Assembly: GCA_963667255.1 (NCBI GenBank)
Contig: OY762940.1
Coordinates: 159,485-223,484, forward strand
Direction: 5' to 3'
Length of the DNA: 64,000 nucleotides
Source of the DNA: Candidatus Cloacimonadota bacterium
Lineage (GTDB): Bacteria > Cloacimonadota > Cloacimonadia > G963667145
Shown: positions 47,754 through 56,612 of the stretch, piece after piece
How the letters are laid out: every line of letters starts with the position of its first letter
Position numbering within the stretch: position 1 is the stretch's first letter
Notes under the pieces: model-generated
What the model was told of the DNA's origin: nothing
Seen by the model: the letters and a program-made list of their open reading frames with translations, nothing else
The model's database searches: none
Translations under genes and position numbers: made by a program

Positions 47754-47849
47754 TGTTTGTTCACTTTTCTTTTCACTGGAAAAGAAAACTCTCTATTATC
47801 ATAAAATCGCTAAAAATAGAGTCATGAGCTGTAGTTTGGCTAAGTGATG

Positions 47850-48250
47850 ACAAACAACTGATAGTATCTCAACCTCTCTCAAACTGGGTTCCCGCGTTCG
47901 CGGGAACGAGACAAGAAGAGCAAGAAACCCAAACACCCCGCACCCTCATTCCCGTGAAAACGGGTATTCATTCAGCCCTCGGACTACAGTTTTTTCTGTC
48001 TTTTTTCTTTCTTATTCGTTCTTTTACAGGGGGTCTCTACCTTTTCTTTGACCGTTCAAAGAAAAGGTAGAGAAGAAGGAAAACCGCTCTGACCACTAAA
48101 ATGCAGTCTCTAAGATTAGCTTTATTTTAGTGGTCAGATTAGCGTTCAGAGTTTAGCCACCCAAGCACAAAAGCAAGAAGCATAACTATAAAGAATTGTG
48201 CTTGACCTGCCTATTCTTGATGGGACATCAGCAAGGTAACTAAGCAGTTG
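47850..48250. repeat. Intergenic hairpin mosaic 5
   Basis: Palindromes 47888-47907 and 47948-47967, perfect 17-bp hairpin 48035-48072, TGACCAC hairpin 48088-48138, CAAGCACAA...TTGTGCTTG module. Confidence 0.85.
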
Positions 48251-48340
48251 CTTTGACACTTTCGTGTTTCAAAGCTTTTTGAATAAAAAAAAGATTGAGA
48301 TATGGAAACCCATAGCCCAATCTTTTCAGCAGTTACTGAA

Positions 48341-48862
48341 CTACTCTTTAGTCCACTTACCAGCTAATTTTCCAGAACACAAACCAAATAATCCACCGAC
48401 AGCTATAGATACAGAAATTATAATTAGTGGATTATCCAATCTTCCGCCGAGCATAACTTCGTTGCTCAATTTACCTGGTGTTTGCAAAAGGTAAGCAAAA
48501 GTACTTGCATAACCGAAAAAAGAAGCAGGTATTGTTGCGAGTGATGGGACATTGGCAGCCCAAACTACTATTGCAACTGAAATACCCACCGCGATAGCTC
48601 CCCAAAGCGGTAGACCAAGAGAAGCAGCTAAGGGAACATTGATAATGATAACCGCTGTGAGCCAAGCCATAATTACACCAAAGATTCCACAAACAATAAC
48701 ATTTTTCAATGTTTCACTAGTGCCGCCAAGAGCAAAAAATGCCCCCCAGGCAATAAAAATTGCCCAGATTAACAGAACACTACTGAGTGGTCCTAAAGCC
48801 AAAAAAGTAGCAACACCACCCAAAAGACCAATGCTCAAACCAAGAGCCGTGAGACTTTTCAT
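48341..48862 (-). CDS. DUF1097-family membrane protein
   Basis: Hydrophobic, WAIFIAWGAFFALGG and IPASFFGYASTFA pattern; AGGAGG RBS. Confidence 0.7.
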   Translation of the reverse strand: MKSLTALGLSIGLLGGVATFLALGPLSSVLLIWAIFIAWGAFFALGGTSETLKNVIVCGIFGVIMAWLTAVIIINVPLAASLGLPLWGAIAVGISVAIVVWAANVPSLATIPASFFGYASTFAYLLQTPGKLSNEVMLGGRLDNPLIIISVSIAVGGLFGLCSGKLAGKWTKE

Positions 48863-48994
48863 AATTCCTCCTAGAATTACACCCCCGTAATATCGTGGGT
48901 AATAAAAGTTCATTTTTATGTCAAGGCATTTAATTATTTTATTTAGAATATGTTACCGTGTTCACAAAAAAAAGGCTTAGAACAAGAGAGAGAT

Positions 48995-49062
48995 AAAAAA
49001 ACACTGACGAGTTTACTCAGCCAGTGTTCCGCAATTTTTCATTTTTATTCTTTATTTTTTAA
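48995..49062. repeat. CACTG-hairpin repeat module
   Basis: AACACTGACGAGTTTACTCAGCCAGTGTTCCGCAATTTTTC, near-identical to 56099-56140. Confidence 0.75.
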
Positions 49063-49063
49063 T

Positions 49064-49672
49064 TCAAATCACCTCATCTATCTGCTTCATCAGTTTATCT
49101 GTGTGGTAGAGACTACAGATGATTTTTTGGTAGTGCAATATCTCCTCAAATCCCAGTGTGCGACCGACCCTATCCTTGAGCCACTTCTGTGCGGGCTGAT
49201 AACCACCGATGTAGAACTCCCACGCTGTCAATGGCACTCGGTCGAAATACTGCGTGTCGTTTATCCAGACTTTGCCGATGATCTCGTCGTCCTCTTCGGC
49301 TACCCAGCCTACACTATTGATGGTCATCTTACGCGTGATGAGGTTGTCGCCGCTCTGTGGGTAGGTGGTGATGAGCTCCTCCACGAGTGGACTCTCCAGC
49401 AGGTGCAATGCCCGTATCTCTCCGCCGAGCTTGACCAACTGCCAAAAGTTCGCCTTGTCTGTGGGGTATGGCACTCGCGGAAAGTCTATCTTGAGAAACT
49501 CTTTGTATTTCTCGCGGTAGCTGGGGCTGTGTAGCACGGCATAGATGTAGTCCAGCAAATCTACGGGGGCGAATGTCCCCTGCTCGCCTGTCTGCTCGGG
49601 GACAAACCGCAAACCGACGGAGCGGGCTATCGCTTTTACTATTTCGGGGTTAAGGTTGGGAGTGCGTGTCAT
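49064..49672 (-). CDS. C-terminal fragment of a Type IIG/ISP-like restriction-modification enzyme
   Basis: RTPNLN...DYIYAVLHSPSYREKYKEFLKIDFPRVPYP...WEFYIGGYQPAQKWLKDR, the conserved C-terminus of such enzymes; GC similar to the N-terminal half. Confidence 0.85.
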   Translation of the reverse strand: MTRTPNLNPEIVKAIARSVGLRFVPEQTGEQGTFAPVDLLDYIYAVLHSPSYREKYKEFLKIDFPRVPYPTDKANFWQLVKLGGEIRALHLLESPLVEELITTYPQSGDNLITRKMTINSVGWVAEEDDEIIGKVWINDTQYFDRVPLTAWEFYIGGYQPAQKWLKDRVGRTLGFEEILHYQKIICSLYHTDKLMKQIDEVI

Positions 49673-49767
49673 TTTGTTTCTCTTTTTTTAATAATTTTTT
49701 CTTTTGATTGTAATTTCTCTGGTTCTGTATGCATTTCCCTGTTCTCGCTAATTGCTTGCAGAGCTTT

Positions 49768-50292
49768 TTATTGTGTATGCATTTTCCAATAGAAACATTT
49801 TATATTCTTACTTAATTTTACTGCTTTTTTGTTCCCGTATGCATTCCCAAGCTGGAGCTTGGGAACGAGTGGAATATACTCAATTTTCTCATTAAGCATT
49901 TCCTCTGAAATTATCAACTTCGGCTTAGTCCCCTCTTCCCAAAATTGATAAGAAGTCTCTCTTTTATGAGCCTTTTTATAAAACTCCAATTGTTGCAAAA
50001 TAGTTTTCACATTTTTGGCAATCAAGAAATCGAGTATTTTTTTGGCTGTAAATGACTTAAATTTTTGCAAACTTTTGTTCAAATTATCACTACTCACAAT
50101 AAGGTGCAAATGATTTTCCAAAATAACATAACTATAAATTTTCAAATTGTCGCTTTTCTGTAAATGTTGCAGGCTTTCTATGATGATTTGTTTGGTTTCT
50201 ATTTTTGTGAAAATGGGTGTCCAGCGTAGCACCGTGCAGGTTACAAAGTGGATTGCTTGTTCATCGAATATTTTATAACGACTTCTACCCAT
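49768..50292 (-). pseudogene. REP-associated tyrosine transposase (RAYT, Y1/HUH), 3'-truncated by a REP
   Basis: HFVTCTV, YVILENHLHLI (HUH), FKSFTAK, QFWEEG, KIEYI; the expected HxNP after the Tyr is replaced by REP-encoded PLVPKLQLGNAY. Confidence 0.85.
49837..49869. repeat. REP-A palindrome
   Basis: GTATGCATTCCCAAGCTGGAGCTTGGGAACGAG; copies at 50429, 52744 and 55839. Confidence 0.9.
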
Positions 50293-50302
50293 ATTTTTTC
50301 CT

Positions 50303-50461
50303 CTCGCTCCCAAGCTCCAGCTTGGGAGTGTATACTGGCTTCATTGACAGCTGAGTAATTATTGATATGCCTTGTTTATGCTTGGGAAGCAGATGCCCAT
50401 TCTCATTTTGTGCTTAACCCTATTTCCCGTATGCATTCCCAAGCTGGAGCTTGGGAACGAG
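50303..50461. mobile_element. REPIN-like inverted REP doublet directly upstream of the RAYT
   Basis: REP 50303-50335 and inverted REP 50429-50461 separated by 93 nt. Confidence 0.75.
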
Positions 50462-50528
50462 AGAAATGAAGTCTCAAATGATTAGCCGGATTTATGTGGT
50501 CAAAGGAACGAGGGAAAGCGCATATTTT

Positions 50529-50969
50529 TCACAATCCTAATTGCTTGTTAATTGCCAACAATAATTTCAAAATTACCCCTGATTGAAAGTTAGAAACCAA
50601 AACACCATCACAAAACCTATCATTTCGGACTATTACTGTAATCAATTTACATTTAGTAGGAATATCAATCGATGTATAATCAAAGCTCTCATTTGCAAAA
50701 ATTTTTTTACCTTCATTCCAAGCAAACCATTTAAAAACAACTATAATATTTAACTCATAAACTAATGATAAAAATTTTTCAACGACAGGAGACAGAGCAT
50801 AATAAGGCATTATCTCTTCCCCTTCCTTATCTTTTTGGCAAACCATTTCTCCAAATTTAACTGTTGATTTAATTTCTGGAATCAAATCAAGTAATGGTTG
50901 CCAATGTTTCTTGTCATAAGAATTTATTATATCAATATAATTGCTTTCATCTAATCTTATAATTTTCAT
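50529..50969 (-). CDS. Hypothetical protein, DUF6508-like (copy 1)
   Basis: FKWFAW...KLITVIVRNDRFCDGVL..NFQSG pattern; AT-rich; GGGGGG upstream of ATG 50969. Confidence 0.6.
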   Translation of the reverse strand: MKIIRLDESNYIDIINSYDKKHWQPLLDLIPEIKSTVKFGEMVCQKDKEGEEIMPYYALSPVVEKFLSLVYELNIIVVFKWFAWNEGKKIFANESFDYTSIDIPTKCKLITVIVRNDRFCDGVLVSNFQSGVILKLLLAINKQLGL

Positions 50970-51157
50970 TTTCCCCCCTATATTTAACTTTAATTTGTTC
51001 ACTACTCAAATCAGCCTCTCAATCTCAAGCAATTCTTCTCTCAAGCAGTAGCTGTGTCGCATATGCCAACACAGTGTGCCGATTCTCCTTGCACTCTCCC
51101 CACTGGATTCCCGCCTACGCGGGAATGAGGGCGTGCGTGTCGTGTCGCTTATGCTTG

Positions 51158-51484
51158 TCACACAAACATCTTCTTCATTATTCTATCAACTTCATCGTTA
51201 ATTGTATTTTGTTTCAACACAGAATATTTGCTTGATTTCCCGCAAGTCATACATTTCAAATATTCGTCATCTTCTGGTATATACTCTTCATAAGGCGTAT
51301 CAAAATAGGTTGACTGGCAATAGGGACACTTGATTGATACTTCATAAGATATATTGCCTTTGCCTGTTGCTCTCATTCGCTGTTTGGTCGCTGTGGGTTT
51401 TGTAGCGGATTTGTCACTACGCCTACGGTTGGACTTGGATATGATGACAAAGACCAAAACCAAAAAAATGATAGCAAGAATCAT
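51158..51484 (-). CDS. Small membrane-anchored zinc-ribbon protein (copy 1)
   Basis: N-terminal TM, CPYC...CMTC; GGAGG RBS. Confidence 0.7.
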   Translation of the reverse strand: MILAIIFLVLVFVIISKSNRRRSDKSATKPTATKQRMRATGKGNISYEVSIKCPYCQSTYFDTPYEEYIPEDDEYLKCMTCGKSSKYSVLKQNTINDEVDRIMKKMFV

Positions 51485-51607
51485 CTAAAACCTCCAATGC
51501 TTAATCTATATTTTATTTCCGTATGCATTCCCCTGACCACATAAATGAAGTCTCAAATGATTAGCCGGATTTATGTGGTCAAAGGAACGAGGGAAAGCGC
51601 ATATTTT

Positions 51608-52048
51608 TCACAATCCTAATTGCTTGTTAATTGCCAACAATAATTTCAAAATTACCCCTGATTGAAAGTTAGAAACCAAAACACCATCACAAAACCTATC
51701 ATTTCGGACTATTACTGTAATCAATTTACATTTAGTAGGAATATCAATCGATGTATAATCAAAGCTCTCATTTGCAAAAATTTTTTTACCTTCATTCCAA
51801 GCAAACCATTTAAAAACAACTATAATATTTAACTCATAAACTAATGATAAAAATTTTTCAACGACAGGAGACAGAGCATAATAAGGCATTATCTCTTCCC
51901 CTTCCTTATCTTTTTGGCAAACCATTTCTCCAAATTTAACTGTTGATTTAATTTCTGGAATCAAATCAAGTAATGGTTGCCAATGTTTCTTGTCATAAGA
52001 ATTTATTATATCAATATAATTGCTTTCATCTAATCTTATAATTTTCAT
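51608..52048 (-). CDS. Hypothetical protein, DUF6508-like (copy 2)
   Basis: Translation identical to copy 1. Confidence 0.6.
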   Translation of the reverse strand: MKIIRLDESNYIDIINSYDKKHWQPLLDLIPEIKSTVKFGEMVCQKDKEGEEIMPYYALSPVVEKFLSLVYELNIIVVFKWFAWNEGKKIFANESFDYTSIDIPTKCKLITVIVRNDRFCDGVLVSNFQSGVILKLLLAINKQLGL

Positions 52049-52236
52049 TTTCCCCCCTATATTTAACTTTAATTTGTTCACTACTCAAATCAGCCTCTCA
52101 ATCTCAAGCAATTCTTCTCTCAAGCAGTAGCTGTGTCGCATATGCCAACACAGTGTGCCGATTCTCCTTGCACTCTCCCCACTGGATTCCCGCCTACGCG
52201 GGAATGAGGGCGTGCGTGTCGTGTCGCTTATGCTTG

Positions 52237-52563
52237 TCACACAAACATCTTCTTCATTATTCTATCAACTTCATCGTTAATTGTATTTTGTTTCAACACA
52301 GAATATTTGCTTGATTTCCCGCAAGTCATACATTTCAAATATTCGTCATCTTCTGGTATATACTCTTCATAAGGCGTATCAAAATAGGTTGACTGGCAAT
52401 AGGGACACTTGATTGATACTTCATAAGATATATTGCCTTTGCCTGTTGCTCTCATTCGCTGTTTGGTCGCTGTGCGTCTTACCGCAGATTTGTCACTACG
52501 CCTACGGTTGGACTTGGATATGATGACAAAGACCAAAACCAAAAAAATGATAGCAAGAATCAT
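52237..52563 (-). CDS. Small membrane-anchored zinc-ribbon protein (copy 2)
   Basis: Identical to copy 1 except SAVRRT versus SATKPT. Confidence 0.7.
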   Translation of the reverse strand: MILAIIFLVLVFVIISKSNRRRSDKSAVRRTATKQRMRATGKGNISYEVSIKCPYCQSTYFDTPYEEYIPEDDEYLKCMTCGKSSKYSVLKQNTINDEVDRIMKKMFV

Positions 52564-52599
52564 CTAAAACCTCCAATGCTTAATCTATATTTTATTTCC

Positions 52600-52904
52600 G
52601 TATGCATTCCCCTGACCACATAAATGAAGTCTCAAGTGATTAGCCGTATTTACATGGTTAGAGGAGCGAGTGGGGAAAGTTCATCAATTCCAATTACAAT
52701 ACTTTTTAATTCTTCGGTTTTTACTACTGCTCACTTATTTCCCGTATGCATTCCCAAGCTGGAGCTTGGGAACGAGCAACACTCGCACGATTAGCCGTAT
52801 TTATGTGGTCTGAGGAACGAGTGGCTGGGGTGGAATTATCCATTGCTCTGCCTTGGCAGAGTCAAGCACAAGGCTATTCCATTTCTCCCTGCTTTTGTGC
52901 TTGG
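52600..52904. repeat. Hairpin mosaic at the RM interruption point
   Basis: TGACCAC-in-REP hybrid 52600-52670, REP 52744-52776, half module 52789-52821, CAAGCACAA inverted repeat 52863-52903. Confidence 0.8.
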
Positions 52905-55514
52905 TCAATTATCTCCCTCTTCGTCTATTTGTATTTGCAGGGTTTCTTCTTCGTAGCAATACAAAGGAGCAATACTTTCTCCTCCTTTGTTATCCGACCT
53001 TATATAACCATCAGCTACAATATTTTTAGAAATAAAAACATACAAATCCTTATTTTCTGGCTGTTGCCTCCGAAATACCAACCCCAAATTGTCTCCACTC
53101 AAAAAATGCTTCATCACATTTCCTCTGGGCATACAATGAAATCCTTTGGACTTACCTGTAAAATATGTCCATCTGTCATCAAAAGGTCTGTAAGAAATTT
53201 TACAAATATTTTCTTCTTTTAACTCGGATTTTCGCAAATCATTTTGAGCCAAATCCACTTTCCAATCTCTCACATCTTTACCAAGATTGTATTTTGTTCT
53301 TGCTTCTTCTACATCCAATTGAACAAAATCAGAGATAATTTCCTTAACCTGTTCTTTTGTTTCATGAATAGTAAAATTATCTCTTGCGGTCACTATTCCA
53401 ACGCTATTCACAGGAAACAAATCAGCTACCGAAAACCCTTTTTCGTATTCGCCTTGCAAATCGTTGTCTTTCGGCACAAAAAAGTAGTTCGGCTCTTTGT
53501 ATTCTATATCTTGCCAAGCGATACTGTCCAAGCTGTTCTCTTCCAAGAAGTTGTATTTGTCGTCTCTCCTACCATAGAGGTCGCAGTGACGGACCTTCGC
53601 CAAGCTCTGATTGTCGCCTCTCTTGACCAAAATGTTGATGCTCACTCCCTGCATAATGTCAAAGACATTCTCGTCCTTGCTTCCGTCGGGGCATACCTCT
53701 TTTTTCTTGGCGTTACCGTGCAAATCGAGTGTGTAAATCTCGTCGAAACTTTGCAACAGATTCCAACGCATTCCCCTGAAAGTCGGGTTGTCCAAAAATC
53801 CGTGAGGATTGATAAAAGCCAAAATTCCCTCGCCGTTCTTGTCGATGTAGTGTTGACCGAAGCGAATAAATTTCACATAATCGTCGTTAATCCATTTGGA
53901 GTTCCGCTCTTGCAATTTCACTTTGCCACCCGGCTCTTTTTTGTAATCTTCCATAATGCTCATTATCCAGTCGCCTTTGTTGGCACTTTCGCCACTATAC
54001 GGAGGATTGCCAATGACGCACATCACTGGGGTGTCTCGCTTGATGTGGTTCGCCTCGTTTGCCTCTGTGCTGAGCCATGCGGAGAATATCGTGCCTGTGT
54101 CGGGGTGTTCCTCCTCAAGTGAGTTGGTCAGATAGATGTTGAAGCGTTGATTTTTGTTGGGAATGTAGCCAGTCTCCCCAAGGAGCATATCCAGCTTGAG
54201 ATGTGCCATAGAGTAGCTCGCCATCAGCAGCTCAAAGCCGTTGAGCCGTGGGATAAGATGCTCGTCCACATAGGCACTCCACGCACCTTGCATCGACCGA
54301 AATCGCTTCTCATAGATGAACTTGACCACTTCTGCCAAGAATGTGCCTGTGCCTGTTGCGGGGTCTAAGATTTGCACCTTGTGGACTTCTTTGTCGATTT
54401 GTTTGAAGCCTGTCTTGGAGCGATTGTCCAGCGTTTGTGTGTCCACCTTTATCATGCTTTTGCTGGTGTCGGCTATGCCTGCCGTCAGTCCGAAATCGTC
54501 TCTCAGCACTTTGTCCACTGCTCTCACGATGAACTTGACTACCGGCTCGGGAGTATACCACACGCCTCTGGCTTTCTTGAGTTTTGGGTCGTATTCTCCG
54601 AGGAAGGTCTCGTAAAAATGGATTATCGGGTCTTGCATTTTGGTGGATTTGCCGAAATTCTTCAACAGCTCTTTGATGTTGGTAGCTCTAAACACATCGG
54701 CGAGGTTGTCCACTGTGGTTTTTATCCGCTCGTCTATGTCGGGACCTGCGATGTAACCGAAGAGCCTCCGCAAGAATGGGTTGGATTTGGGTATCAGCTC
54801 GGCTGCTTCATTTCTGCTAAAATCGTCCAAAGTCTTGTCGTGCAGTCGGGCGGCAAACATCCCGTAAGCCAAGGTCTGCGAATAGATGTCGGCGAAATCA
54901 TTGATTTGCAAATCGTGAATGAGAATGTTCTTGAACGCCTGAAACTGACCTTGCAGGGAGCTGTTCTCCATAGTCTGTTCGTCCGCATTGAGAGCCTCTT
55001 CCAAGATGTTTTTCAGGAGTTTAGCTTTGCCCGCCATCATCTTGGCAAGTTTGGCGGGAGACTTTATCGTCTGCCCGATGTATTGGCAAAAGTCTTTGAG
55101 CAAATTCTCAAAGTAAGCGAAATTGTCCGCAAGTGCCACAACTTTGCCGTCCATTATCTCGGCTATGCGTATCTCGTGAGTTAGTTCGCCATTTTGATAG
55201 AACCTAAACCACAGATAGTCGGTGATTATCAGGTTGTCCAGAGCGTTGCGATAGCGGTCAAATTGCTCTTTGTAGCCCTTGGCTGCCAAGTCCTTGCCCA
55301 CATCTTTTGCCTCTATGTAACCGACGGGGATTTTGCCCTTGGTCAGCACATAGTCAGGGTTGCCACAGTCCGTCACATTCGCCGGCTCATTCGTCACTTC
55401 CACACCGGTGGTCAGCCCACGCACCAGCTCTTCCAAATCGCCTCTGTAACTATGCTCTCTGCTGATGCCCGAGGCGTATCGCTTGCTGACTTTCGCTAGA
55501 TAATCACTAATCAT
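52905..55514 (-). CDS. N-terminal part of a Type IIG/ISP-like RM enzyme (nuclease + N6-adenine MTase + TRD)
   Basis: GNPD...YIEAKD (PD-(D/E)xK), RGVWYTP, ILDPATGTGTF (motif I), IGNPPY (motif IV); stops shortly after PLY. Confidence 0.9.
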   Translation of the reverse strand: MISDYLAKVSKRYASGISREHSYRGDLEELVRGLTTGVEVTNEPANVTDCGNPDYVLTKGKIPVGYIEAKDVGKDLAAKGYKEQFDRYRNALDNLIITDYLWFRFYQNGELTHEIRIAEIMDGKVVALADNFAYFENLLKDFCQYIGQTIKSPAKLAKMMAGKAKLLKNILEEALNADEQTMENSSLQGQFQAFKNILIHDLQINDFADIYSQTLAYGMFAARLHDKTLDDFSRNEAAELIPKSNPFLRRLFGYIAGPDIDERIKTTVDNLADVFRATNIKELLKNFGKSTKMQDPIIHFYETFLGEYDPKLKKARGVWYTPEPVVKFIVRAVDKVLRDDFGLTAGIADTSKSMIKVDTQTLDNRSKTGFKQIDKEVHKVQILDPATGTGTFLAEVVKFIYEKRFRSMQGAWSAYVDEHLIPRLNGFELLMASYSMAHLKLDMLLGETGYIPNKNQRFNIYLTNSLEEEHPDTGTIFSAWLSTEANEANHIKRDTPVMCVIGNPPYSGESANKGDWIMSIMEDYKKEPGGKVKLQERNSKWINDDYVKFIRFGQHYIDKNGEGILAFINPHGFLDNPTFRGMRWNLLQSFDEIYTLDLHGNAKKKEVCPDGSKDENVFDIMQGVSINILVKRGDNQSLAKVRHCDLYGRRDDKYNFLEENSLDSIAWQDIEYKEPNYFFVPKDNDLQGEYEKGFSVADLFPVNSVGIVTARDNFTIHETKEQVKEIISDFVQLDVEEARTKYNLGKDVRDWKVDLAQNDLRKSELKEENICKISYRPFDDRWTYFTGKSKGFHCMPRGNVMKHFLSGDNLGLVFRRQQPENKDLYVFISKNIVADGYIRSDNKGGESIAPLYCYEEETLQIQIDEEGDN

Positions 55515-55699
55515 TTTTACCTACTATTTTATGAAATTCTCAAAACTAAAGTTCTACTCTGACAGGTTATGAAACTTCAAGCAAATAAATCAAGCGTTAT
55601 TTAAAATTTTTGCAAAAAACTTAAATAGCAAACTCCTTAATTAAGATTTTGCCGATTTTCTTAATTAGTGGGAAGATTATTTAAGAGTCGCGAGAATAG

Positions 55700-56150
55700 C
55701 CTAACCACAAAAGCACCAAGCAATAGAATAGTCTTGTGTTTGGCTACGCAGTTCAGTCTCTTGAGCCTTTGCAGAGACTAAAAAACAATCTCACTCCCAA
55801 GCTGGAGATTGAGAGTGTATATGTGCTTTCTAATTCCCTTATGCATTCCCAAGCTGGAGCTTGGGAACGAGTAAAAAGTTGTGGTTGGCTGGAAATTGAG
55901 AGGCGAGTTCCTGAAAAGCAACTGATAGTATCTCAACCTCTCCCCAACTGGATTCCCGCTTTCGCAGGAACGAGGCAAGAAGAGCAAGAAGCCCAAACAT
56001 CCCGCACCCTCATACCCGTGAAAACGGGTATCCATTCTTGGCTCATTTCTTAGAAAAAGCAACTGCTGTCTCCCCTGTCCCTCTGAGCGAAAACAAAAAA
56101 CACTGGCGAGTTTACTCAGCCAGTGTTCCGCAATTTTTCATTTTTCATTC
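55700..56150. repeat. Intergenic hairpin mosaic
   Basis: Degenerate REP doublet 55790-55871, palindromes at 55952 and 56012, CACTGGC hairpin 56099-56127; 55918-56035 resembles 47855-47970. Confidence 0.85.
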
Positions 56151-56612
56151 TTATTTTTTATCTAAAAGAAACCTCTCCCACACCCGAAACTTCCCCTTCT
56201 GCTTCTCTGCCAATAAGCCACTCTTCACAAGCGAACTGAACGCAGTCTGCACCACTTCTACTCCTGACTTGTGAAATTTGGAAAAGATTTTTTCCTTGGT
56301 TTTTGGATTCTCACAGAAATCCAAAATCTTCTGCTCCAACCCCTGTGCAACACTAATTTTCTCCGAGCCGACAACGACCAAAGTTTGCCCAAGATTGCAA
56401 CGAACTCCATCTTTTTCGGTAAAAAACTTAACCCCTACACTTTTTAGAAAAGCACGCACTTTCCGCTTGAGAATGCCGTCGCTTCCTCCTGAGCCATAAC
56501 CATGCACCACCACCAGTTCACAGTGCGGAGAGCCGACCAAGCTGTTGTATTTTTGCACCAGAGTCGCCAAGCCTTCTTGCACTGTCAGCCCATGCAAATC
56601 AACTTCCATCAT
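56151..56612 (-). CDS. Small Smr/MutS2-domain protein
   Basis: EVDLHGL...VVHGYGS...GILK...NLGQT. Confidence 0.8.
   Translation of the reverse strand: MMEVDLHGLTVQEGLATLVQKYNSLVGSPHCELVVVHGYGSGGSDGILKRKVRAFLKSVGVKFFTEKDGVRCNLGQTLVVVGSEKISVAQGLEQKILDFCENPKTKEKIFSKFHKSGVEVVQTAFSSLVKSGLLAEKQKGKFRVWERFLLDKK

Follow-up and report, generated by a model that had tools for sequence, protein, structure and literature searches.

Introduction

Restriction-modification (RM) enzymes of Type IIG (IIL) such as DrdV and MmeI, and with them LlaGI and LlaBIII, combine a nuclease, a gamma-class N6-adenine (N6A) methylase and a specificity domain (Type_ISP_C) in that order, and Type IIG enzymes are treated as indivisible. 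Here we describe a member of this group that is encoded by two separate open reading frames (ORFs) with other genes lying between them, in a 64,000-nucleotide stretch of the genome of a Candidatus Cloacimonadota bacterium (GenBank assembly GCA_963667255.1, contig OY762940.1, positions 159,485 to 223,484; the whole stretch is called the window, and coordinates are those of the window unless another genome is named). The gene shares the domain order of DrdV/MmeI and LlaGI/LlaBIII and matches the PADLOC profile PDLC03610 end to end, but differs from them in consisting of two chains, split in the specificity domain, with 0.7-3.2 kb of genes in between, and it differs from Type ISP enzymes in having no helicase module. 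We hold it to be probable, with room for doubt, that this is a stably split, two-chain Type IIG enzyme and that the gap within its operon acts as a hot spot of foreign genes, rich in repetitive extragenic palindromes (REPs) and carrying a RAYT, the Y1/HUH transposase of REPs.

The gap between the two halves recalls several described systems. In REP/RAYT systems (REPtrons, REPIN-RAYT; E. coli TnpA-REP), as here, a single-copy Y1/HUH gene is flanked by inverted REPs and the REP is dispersed in the genome, with a short tag beside the stem (GTAT here, classically GTAG), and a single copy with flanking repeats is also what PMC5581495 describes. The present system departs from them in the truncation of the RAYT copy in the window and in the existence of two relatives that bear REPs (many or some) without a RAYT; moreover, the literature presents RAYTs as mostly passed on vertically and akin to housekeeping genes, whereas this one lies inside a restriction gene found at varying chromosomal places. 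Accessory genes embedded in RM loci include the rlo genes of Campylobacter Type I loci. Variable, unrelated genes within an RM operon, co-transcribed by position, are likewise represented by prrC in EcoprrI (PMC12707154), but those genes lie between separate hsd genes, and here the single-chain enzyme gene itself is divided.

Integron arrays also consist of co-oriented, small, promoter-poor genes with hairpin repeats between them, their content differing among relatives at a fixed site. The gap differs from them in that no integrase was found among its ORFs (Pfam on 6 ORFs gave only Y1_Tnp, the RAYT, in this respect, and no genome-wide IntI search was made), no attI lies in the gap, the hairpins occur genome-wide, the cargo of two relatives has no 3' hairpin, and a repeated gene pair is a tandem duplication. 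It differs from IS200/IS605 elements with passenger genes in that there are no near-identical whole copies, the RAYT and every cargo gene occurring only here. A RAYT beside a variable cluster of small genes has been proposed to drive diversification of the prochlorosin clusters of picocyanobacteria, although a later note by the same authors states that there is no strong evidence for or against causation by TnpA-REP (bioRxiv 10.1101/2020.03.09.984088); genes and setting are different there. In the open-access literature searched, supplements excluded, neither a RAYT inside a restriction gene nor a stably split Type IIG enzyme was found. The locus described here brings together, in one mobile unit, a Type IIG enzyme in two chains, a REP/RAYT system and accessory genes embedded in an RM locus.

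Results

A Type IIG gene is divided in the linker of its specificity domain

The N-half of the enzyme lies on the minus strand at 52905-55514 (869 aa; nuclease, methylase and the first half of Type_ISP_C) and ends ...IAPLYCYEEETLQIQIDEEGDN*, 17 aa past the motif PLY, and the C-half lies on the same strand at 49064-49672 (202 aa; the second half of Type_ISP_C), with an ATG of its own, and begins MTRTPNLN (MT-RTPNLNPE). Of the 342 positions of the Pfam domain Type_ISP_C, 1-158 were matched by the N-half and 166-341 by the C-half, and of the 1096 positions of the PADLOC profile REase_MTase_IIG (PDLC03610) the N-half covered 1-885 and the C-half 882-1075, giving end to end across both halves the contiguous coverage that a first-pass annotation of this DNA had proposed as a check. 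A full-length relative (1068 aa, 66% identical) from a genome of another family (G039) reads ...FPLYLY-LDKSEQNLIDDNKD-RTPNLNPE, and because it reads straight through the PLY linker to RTPNLNPE, nothing but the junction is missing from the split enzyme. Profile coverage and this alignment thus agree with the earlier proposal that the two halves are one member of the family, split in the short PLY/RTPN linker. The position of the split is inside the specificity domain and not between domains, and Type_ISP_C is complete when both halves are taken together.

An N-terminal PD..ExK nuclease was present (..NPDYV..GYIEAKD..; the Pfam HSDR_N match was weak, E 0.002), as were the gamma-class N6A methylase motifs DPATGTGTF (I) and NPPY (IV) (Pfam N6_Mtase, E 8.9e-12). 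The solved relatives found by sequence match were DrdV (7lo5), LlaGI and LlaBIII (7lo5, 5ffj, 4xqk). Type IIG/IIL enzymes are defined as single polypeptides; each of the 4 carrier genomes in this genus has two ORFs instead. Read along the minus strand, the locus comprises the N-half, hairpins, a Zn-ribbon gene and a DUF6508 gene as a pair that occurs twice, a REP doublet, the RAYT, a REP, half-REPs and the C-half, and every part named in the first-pass annotation was recovered in its place from the ORF list and the sequence, the genes all on the minus strand.

The split is shared by four species and both halves are conserved

The genome holding the window (G000) is a single contig of 1.588 Mb with 39% G+C, and five congeners (G001-G005) were searched. 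The split gene was present in three of these five (G001, G003 and G004), and with G000 all carriers (4/4) have the division in the PLY/RTPN linker. In G001, G003 and G004 the N-half frame is 861-873 aa long and has the same stop point, each with a separate C-half beginning MTRTPN(L/I)NPE, and the tails of the N-halves past PLY were alike (..ETQQMEIGEE*, ..DDDQIKIGDK*, ..EETLQIQIDEEGDN*). A search of the class, covering 232 genomes, gave 47 matches to the C-half, of which stand-alone frames (204-216 aa, matching from residue 1) occurred only in the 4 genomes of this genus, most of the remainder sitting in frames of about 1000 aa or more. A metagenome scan with the C-half alignment yielded 3 loci, 61-66% identical and all unsplit, and no further split loci. 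The first-pass annotation had taken the gene to be split by the insert now present, and this had to be abandoned, since the split is as old as the genus and the same in 4/4 carriers.

Three stand-alone C-halves from other sources, on contigs of 5-58 kb (P0123, P0132 and P0206), also begin at the linker (MKRTPN.., MQSHIKRTPN.. and MERIPN..). Judged by these starts, the same split may exist outside the genus, or may have arisen more than once.

Pairwise dN/dS, calculated with our own Nei-Gojobori script, was 0.06-0.15 for the N-half (0.33 for G003-G004, a mosaic pair) and 0.08-0.16 for the C-half, at dS values over both halves of 0.27-2.1 that are partly saturated. The residues D54, E68 and K70 and the motifs DPATGTGTF and NPPY were invariant in 4/4 species. 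N-half residues 640-869 and the C-half were modelled as a complex, which scored 0.93 against 0.00 for the best control, a mark that 58/80 solved complexes and 2/110 mismatched pairs reached; the runs agreed in at least 91% of contacts, partner pLDDT was at least 92, and PLY contacted C-half residues 5-6. Because single-chain relatives are solved, this pass shows that the halves resemble one domain, not that they bind. The suggestion that the C-half, with its own ATG, might still take part in a functional two-chain enzyme gained from the split shared by 4/4 carriers, the dN/dS of 0.06-0.16, the invariant motifs and the complex model, and on this evidence the two-chain enzyme is very likely functional. 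These comparisons indicate that the gene is a two-chain form maintained by selection, not the casualty of a transposon.

Two alleles of the last ~150 aa of the N-half (nt ~2100-2640), which make up the first half of the specificity domain, were seen, one in G000 and G003 and the other in G001, G004 and the unsplit relative G039, and they probably correspond to different recognition sequences. Two further forms of a divided gene were considered and rejected. A split intein was set aside on inspection of the sequence: only 17 aa follow PLY, and the C-half begins at the extein. Precise excision restoring one frame was likewise not accepted, stop and start being kept in four species and the gap having no flanking repeat.

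The content of the gap differs among relatives

The gap, measured from the N-half stop to RTPN, was 3238 nt long in G000, 2131 in G003, 1204 in G004 and 698 in G001. In that of G003, three REPs were followed by the 177-aa RAYT, a REP in inverted orientation, a gene for 276 aa matching phrog_23933 (E 3.8e-23) and a further two REPs; that of G004 held 2.5 copies of a 125-bp unit and then a 323-aa DUF5677 gene overlapping the C-half ATG; that of G001 held hairpins along with a Zn-ribbon gene of 120 aa (45% identity to its G000 counterpart), which ends 10 nt before the C-half ATG. Cassette content that varies among relatives, the comparison suggested at first pass, was therefore found, the gaps of the four relatives differing at the same linker. 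All gap genes were co-oriented with the enzyme (9/9 across 4 genomes), and a scan of the minus strand over 49672-52905, by consensus only, found no terminator-like site.

In G000 the cargo consists of a Zn-ribbon gene (copy A, 52237-52563, minus strand, 108 aa) and a DUF6508 gene (copy A, 51608-52081, minus strand; Pfam E 7e-36), each present again downstream on the same strand (copies B at 51158-51484, 3 aa different, and 50529-51002, identical in protein). The Zn-ribbon protein has an N-terminal hydrophobic helix and two CxxC pairs and resembles ECs_2282 (NCBIfam, 35.2 bits, slightly below the cut-off of 37), with weak PADLOC matches to the candidate defence proteins PDC-S64 (E 3e-4) and PDC-M14A (E 1e-3). 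Relatives of the DUF6508 protein have a length of about 143 aa, and the true start of copy A is therefore likely to be the ATG at 52048.

The first-pass annotation had read the second pair as stacked by another capture. The pair is indeed present twice, but the second capture does not stand, since 50457-52614 is a tandem duplication of 2 x 1,079 bp with 6 differences. Identity runs from the loop of one long hairpin to ..CATTT, where the last copy joins a REP foot, and the ends of the two copies share the 14-nt stretch TTGAGACTTCATTT, which could have mediated slippage producing the duplication. All six differences are substitutions within 12 nt of the Zn-ribbon gene (52475-52486 versus 51396-51407; ..SAVRRTA.. 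versus ..SATKPTA..), and a patch of this kind is more suggestive of a short tract of conversion or of clustered mutation than of random drift. Sequencing runs were used as contigs, X1, X3 and X4 being of the same strain and X1 possibly the source sample; in X1 the collapsed unit contig had a depth of 125.6 against 63-70 for its flanks, and the same contigs were found in a second sample, X3. Most joints recovered from the runs belonged to other REP loci.

No copies of the cargo genes or the RAYT beyond those in the gap were found in G000. In the 5 congeners, searches with the Zn-ribbon gene, the DUF5677 gene and the 276-aa gene found no copies beyond the gap itself, the Zn-ribbon gene matching only the G001 gap copy, and the DUF6508 gene had no match in any of the 40 relatives searched. 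The distribution of DUF6508 is patchy, across many phyla, and 78 genome loci elsewhere showed no conserved partner: 0/62 upstream ORFs were a small double-CxxC protein, a RAYT was nearby in 1 of the 78 loci, and a Zn-ribbon gene or RM halves in 0. A structure model of the DUF6508 protein (pLDDT 89.6) had no match in the PDB at E <= 0.001. The G+C content was 46-52% for the restriction gene and 28-33% for the DUF6508 genes, compared with 39% for the genome, and by composition the restriction unit and its cargo look foreign, from differing origins. The sole DUF6508 locus with a RAYT-like gene is on an Adhaeribacter soli contig (L086, 3290-4366), where that gene lies directly upstream on the opposite strand with 30% identity to the G000 RAYT. 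In run X5 (organism B), a RAYT ~95% alike and a Zn-ribbon gene ~90% alike were seen beside REP feet, with DUF6508 uncovered; these data were too fragmentary and were not used.

The enzyme gene itself is a mosaic. G003 and G004 were 95-97% alike over N-half nt 1-2100 and 55-64% thereafter, the last stretch of G003 being 89% like G000, and the RAYT regions of G000 and G003 were 91.6% identical over 427 nt. Because N-half identity switches at nt 2100 and the RAYT regions of G000 and G003 are so alike, the first half of the specificity domain and the adjoining RAYT region must have moved as a block between lineages.

Smaller changes were seen at the REPs. The 125-bp unit of G004 is made up in part of a REP and of the final ~30 nt of the N-half, and such repeated units were also present in G003, which has in addition two fragments of the RAYT 5' end, each ending exactly at the CTCGTTCCC foot of the next REP. 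A stretch of 1,120 bp present in G003 is missing from G000, with one of its breakpoints at a REP foot and the other inside the RAYT coding sequence. Breakpoints at hairpin feet, as predicted at first pass, were thus found on some sides (the G003 fragments and one end of the G000/G003 indel) but not on others. No circular or excised form of the gap unit was seen.

Hairpins and REPs of the gap belong to dispersed families

Every spacer of the G000 gap contains a hairpin repeat. Directly after the N-half stop stands a hairpin (52863-52903, minus strand; CAAGCACAA..TTGTGCTTG) of a kind found at the same place in G001, its 9-mer arm occurring 61 times in the genome. There follow, on the minus strand, the left arm of a long hairpin joined to a complete REP (52745-52821, the REP being 52745-52776), the long hairpin that had been called a TGACCAC/REP hybrid (52590-52670; REP feet CTCG.TCC .. 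GGAATGCATACGG, arms TGACCACATAAAT, the left arm a diverged copy), a dRS3-like palindrome (52177-52209; ATTCCCGC-GTAG-GCGGGAAT), a complete long hairpin at the joint of the two duplicated copies (51511-51591), the second copy of the palindrome (51098-51130) and an orphan long-hairpin left arm joined to a complete REP (50430-50512, the REP being 50430-50461). This last REP forms a doublet, upstream of the RAYT, with a REP of a second subtype at 50303-50334, which is on the plus strand and inverted with respect to its neighbours. Another REP (49838-49869, minus strand) truncates the RAYT frame, and two degenerate remnants of REP feet (49723-49787, minus strand; ..GGAAATGCATAC..) are conserved in G003 upstream of its C-half.

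The 32-nt REP reads ..GTATGCA-TTCCCAAGCT-GG-AGCTTGGGAA-CGAG. G000 has 19 copies, and the 7.2-kb island that holds the locus accounts for 5 of these, where by our own arithmetic ~0.09 would be expected by chance; clustering of REPs around a RAYT is a known pattern. Counts of the REP core were 17-19 in G000, 1 in G001, 37 in G003 and 45 in G004, and 0 in both G002 and G005, and the REP family is thus confined to the genomes with the split locus among the six genus genomes counted. The long hairpin, which shares the REP feet, occurs at four other loci of the G000 genome, and the dRS3-like palindrome is a family of about 20 copies. The hairpins are genome-wide extragenic repeat families, not cassette-specific sites, and the role of cassette sites given to them at first pass is contradicted by this dispersal (19 REPs, 4 further long-hairpin loci, ~20 dRS3-like palindromes). 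That cargo is bounded by hairpins on both sides was true of the G000 spacers, but in G001 and G004 the cargo abuts the C-half start without a hairpin.

REPs were also seen in arrays elsewhere. At 892500-902000 of contig C1 of G004 (L100) they recur each ~661 bp over about 3.5 kb, without convincing ORFs, as if composite repeat units had been arrayed in tandem in non-coding DNA. Since G004 has such REP arrays of ~660-bp period away from the split locus, amplification of REP-bounded units is a general trait of the genus.

The RAYT of the window is truncated by a REP

The RAYT is encoded at 49768-50313 on the minus strand (likely start the ATG at 50292) and is the only one in G000. It scored 66.8 bits with NCBIfam REP_Tyr_transpos, below the cut-off of 80, the match ending at profile position 128 of 146, and its frame passes from ..EKIEYI into the REP at 49838-49869, so that it lacks ~38 C-terminal residues present in G003. 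It has kept its HLH motif and its EY tyrosine, which we take to be the catalytic one. The RAYT of G003 is complete (177 aa) and reads ..EKIEYVHCNPVKRGYVANPEDWIYSS.., aligned to E. coli TnpA-REP (4er8) around the ..DYIYINPVKHGWV.. segment; the motif ..EYVHCNPVKRGYV..DW.YSS aligns to 4er8 as well, with the HLH and EYVHCNP.. of G003 included. Of the transposase reported in the gap, the Y1_Tnp gene is therefore present but an intact enzyme is not, in G000. RAYTs were found only in G000 and G003, one in each and only inside the gap, and were absent from the loci of G001 and G004. The REPs that flank the G000 RAYT (50303-50334, inverted, and 49838-49869) are the same REP that is dispersed in 19 copies in the genome.

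The unit occupies different chromosomal places

Relative to G001, in which the flanking DUF1097 and Smr genes lie ~308 bp apart (an empty site), 48956-56168 of the window is an island. The flanks of the unit in G003 and G004 map to 84-90 kb of the G000 genome, and those of the G001 unit to 472-487 kb. The whole unit (N-half, gap and C-half) is thus found at three chromosomal places in the genus, which argues that it moves as one block. N-half nucleotide identity between G000 and G001 was 83-86%, and between G000 and G003/G004 70-75%, compared with 81% and 73% for the neighbouring fabI region; this divergence fits long residence in the genus, though resting on one housekeeping gene.

Discussion

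On the reading that we prefer, the first half of the specificity domain belongs to the N-chain, along with nuclease and methylase, and the second half to the C-chain; the split arose once, before the four carrier species diverged, and was then kept by selection. The model suggests that the two chains reassemble as one enzyme. The gap lies inside the operon, and transcription would continue to the C-half, which we infer because 9/9 gap genes are co-oriented and no terminator-like site was seen. The gap is home to the REP family and to the genus's only RAYT, and a hot spot where foreign accessory genes accumulate (Zn-ribbon with DUF6508, phrog_23933-like, DUF5677, Zn-ribbon alone). The last ~450 nt of the N-half and the adjoining RAYT region have been exchanged between lineages as a block, for which the RM halves supply flanking homology, and local tandem duplications and deletions end at REP feet or short homologies, probably arising by slippage or unequal exchange at hairpins. 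In G000, the Zn-ribbon/DUF6508 unit was recently duplicated in tandem and the RAYT has lost its C-terminus.

Several points weigh against this reading. Enzyme activity, methylation and read-through are predictions from sequence and model, "hot spot" describes a pattern and names no mechanism by which cargo enters, and the dS behind the selection argument is partly saturated. The carriers of the locus are only four genomes, mutually related. The different chromosomal places could reflect rearrangement instead of movement of the unit, and a number of the new joints coincide exactly with the 5' foot of a REP, as an enzyme-driven process would also give.

The co-orientation of 9/9 gap genes, two of them being coupled to the beginning of the C-half (at a distance of 10 nt in G001 and by overlap in G004), would also be expected if these genes were companions of the enzyme, such as inhibition-sensing guardians like PrrC in a Type IC locus, the split being kept for shared transcription. 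This is unlikely but deserves consideration, and it is compatible with the explanation that we favour: PrrC is embedded in an RM locus (PMC12707154), DUF5677 is among the domains that one preprint gives as enriched near defence systems (PMC12632615), and the Zn-ribbon protein has its weak matches to PDC-S64 and PDC-M14A. However, the cargo families are mutually unrelated, none is a known defence protein at a convincing PADLOC score, DUF6508 has neither a solved fold relative nor an RM neighbour in 78 loci, and the G003 gap contains just the RAYT and one unknown gene.

The first-pass annotation had proposed capture guided by hairpins, in which the RAYT would cut and rejoin single-stranded DNA at REP feet, inserting, stacking and duplicating hairpin-bounded units as an integrase-free analogue of the integron. 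ISCR/IS91, another HUH family, is considered to pick up neighbouring genes by one-ended transposition, and this precedent, together with REPs or REP-footed hairpins at every G000 spacer, a REP family confined to genomes with the locus, and cargo that is foreign, unique to the gap and always co-oriented, lends the proposal some appeal. New joints lie exactly at the CTCGTTCCC foot (the orphan left arm-REP, the RAYT cut at codon ~148, and the G003 RAYT fragments at codons 6 and 14), and both ends of the duplicated unit fall within a single hairpin, which is what a circularised cassette would give. We nevertheless regard it as decidedly unlikely. The cargo 3' ends in G001 and G004 abut or overlap the C-half ATG without a hairpin, the DUF5677 gene of G004 has no REP of its own at either end, and the hairpins come from families spread over the genome (19 REPs, long hairpins at 4 more loci, ~20 dRS3-like copies). 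The RAYT is absent from G001 and G004 and is truncated in G000, though the duplication there is the youngest event and 14 nt of microhomology are enough for it. Only one of the two G000/G003 indel breakpoints is at a REP foot, and among other DUF6508 loci 1/78 has a RAYT nearby and 0/78 a Zn-ribbon gene or RM halves. An extension of this idea, that the mobile Type IIG gene is vehicle and safe harbour of the RAYT/REP system and the RAYT in return captures, stacks and amplifies foreign genes in the gap, strikes us as a long shot of much the same order.

The physical interruption of the specificity domain, and the knowledge that REPs land inside genes (PMC3733652), would suit a dead gene, inactivated by REP/RAYT insertion and with its halves decaying. 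This is very improbable: the halves are intact in 4/4 species at dS of about 1-2 with dN/dS of about 0.1, stop, start and catalytic motifs are conserved, and the halves are modelled as one domain. Misassembly of the repeated pair or of the whole insert can be dismissed almost completely, for although near-identical 1.08-kb repeats are prone to assembly error, the copies differ at 6 clustered bases, the unit contig has ~2x flank depth in X1 (125.6 vs 63-70) with the same contigs in X3, and the split is also present in three other complete genomes.

If the preferred reading of a stably split enzyme is correct, a two-chain form maintained over a whole lineage would show that the Type IIG specificity domain can be assembled from separate pieces, which would be of use for engineering and also for annotation, where such halves are easily called pseudogenes. 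The gap would be a natural cargo bay inside a defence gene, making DUF6508, DUF5677, the small membrane Zn-ribbon protein and the phrog_23933-like protein candidates for defence-linked functions. With the genus's only RAYT riding in a relocating restriction unit and the REP family following the unit, the locus may offer a concrete case for the spread of REP systems. G003, with an intact RAYT and REP-bounded partial duplications, would be a testable system for RAYT-mediated rearrangement, and capture driven by the RAYT, if true, would be an HUH-nuclease counterpart of the integron, built into a defence gene.

Repeats around the locus

Two 83-nt terminator-like repeats on the plus strand mark the ends of the island, at 48986-49068 (low end) and 56085-56167 (high end, 86% like the low-end copy). 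A target duplication was considered for these direct repeats and not accepted, as they belong to a dispersed family and the empty site of G001 has no such repeat. Upstream of the N-half, still inside the island, lies a REP doublet with a dRS3-like palindrome (55789-55975, comprising a degenerate copy at 55789-55821, a REP at 55840-55871 and the palindrome at 55943-55975). An Rfam search over 48800-56300 gave no match at E <= 0.1, and no intron or known RNA was recognised. The intergenic regions 47800-48300 and 55515-56085 are mosaics of several repeat families with many copies in all five congeners, and the genus is unusually rich in nested hairpin repeats given a genome of 1.6 Mb.

A repeat search paired the start of the C-half (49653-49683) with 55773-55803, and the first codons of the C-half (49655-49672; ATG ACA CGC ACT CCC AAC) are similar to ..ACACTCCCAAGC.., the foot of the REPs of the second subtype; whatever inserted first may have taken the RTPN codons for a REP foot.

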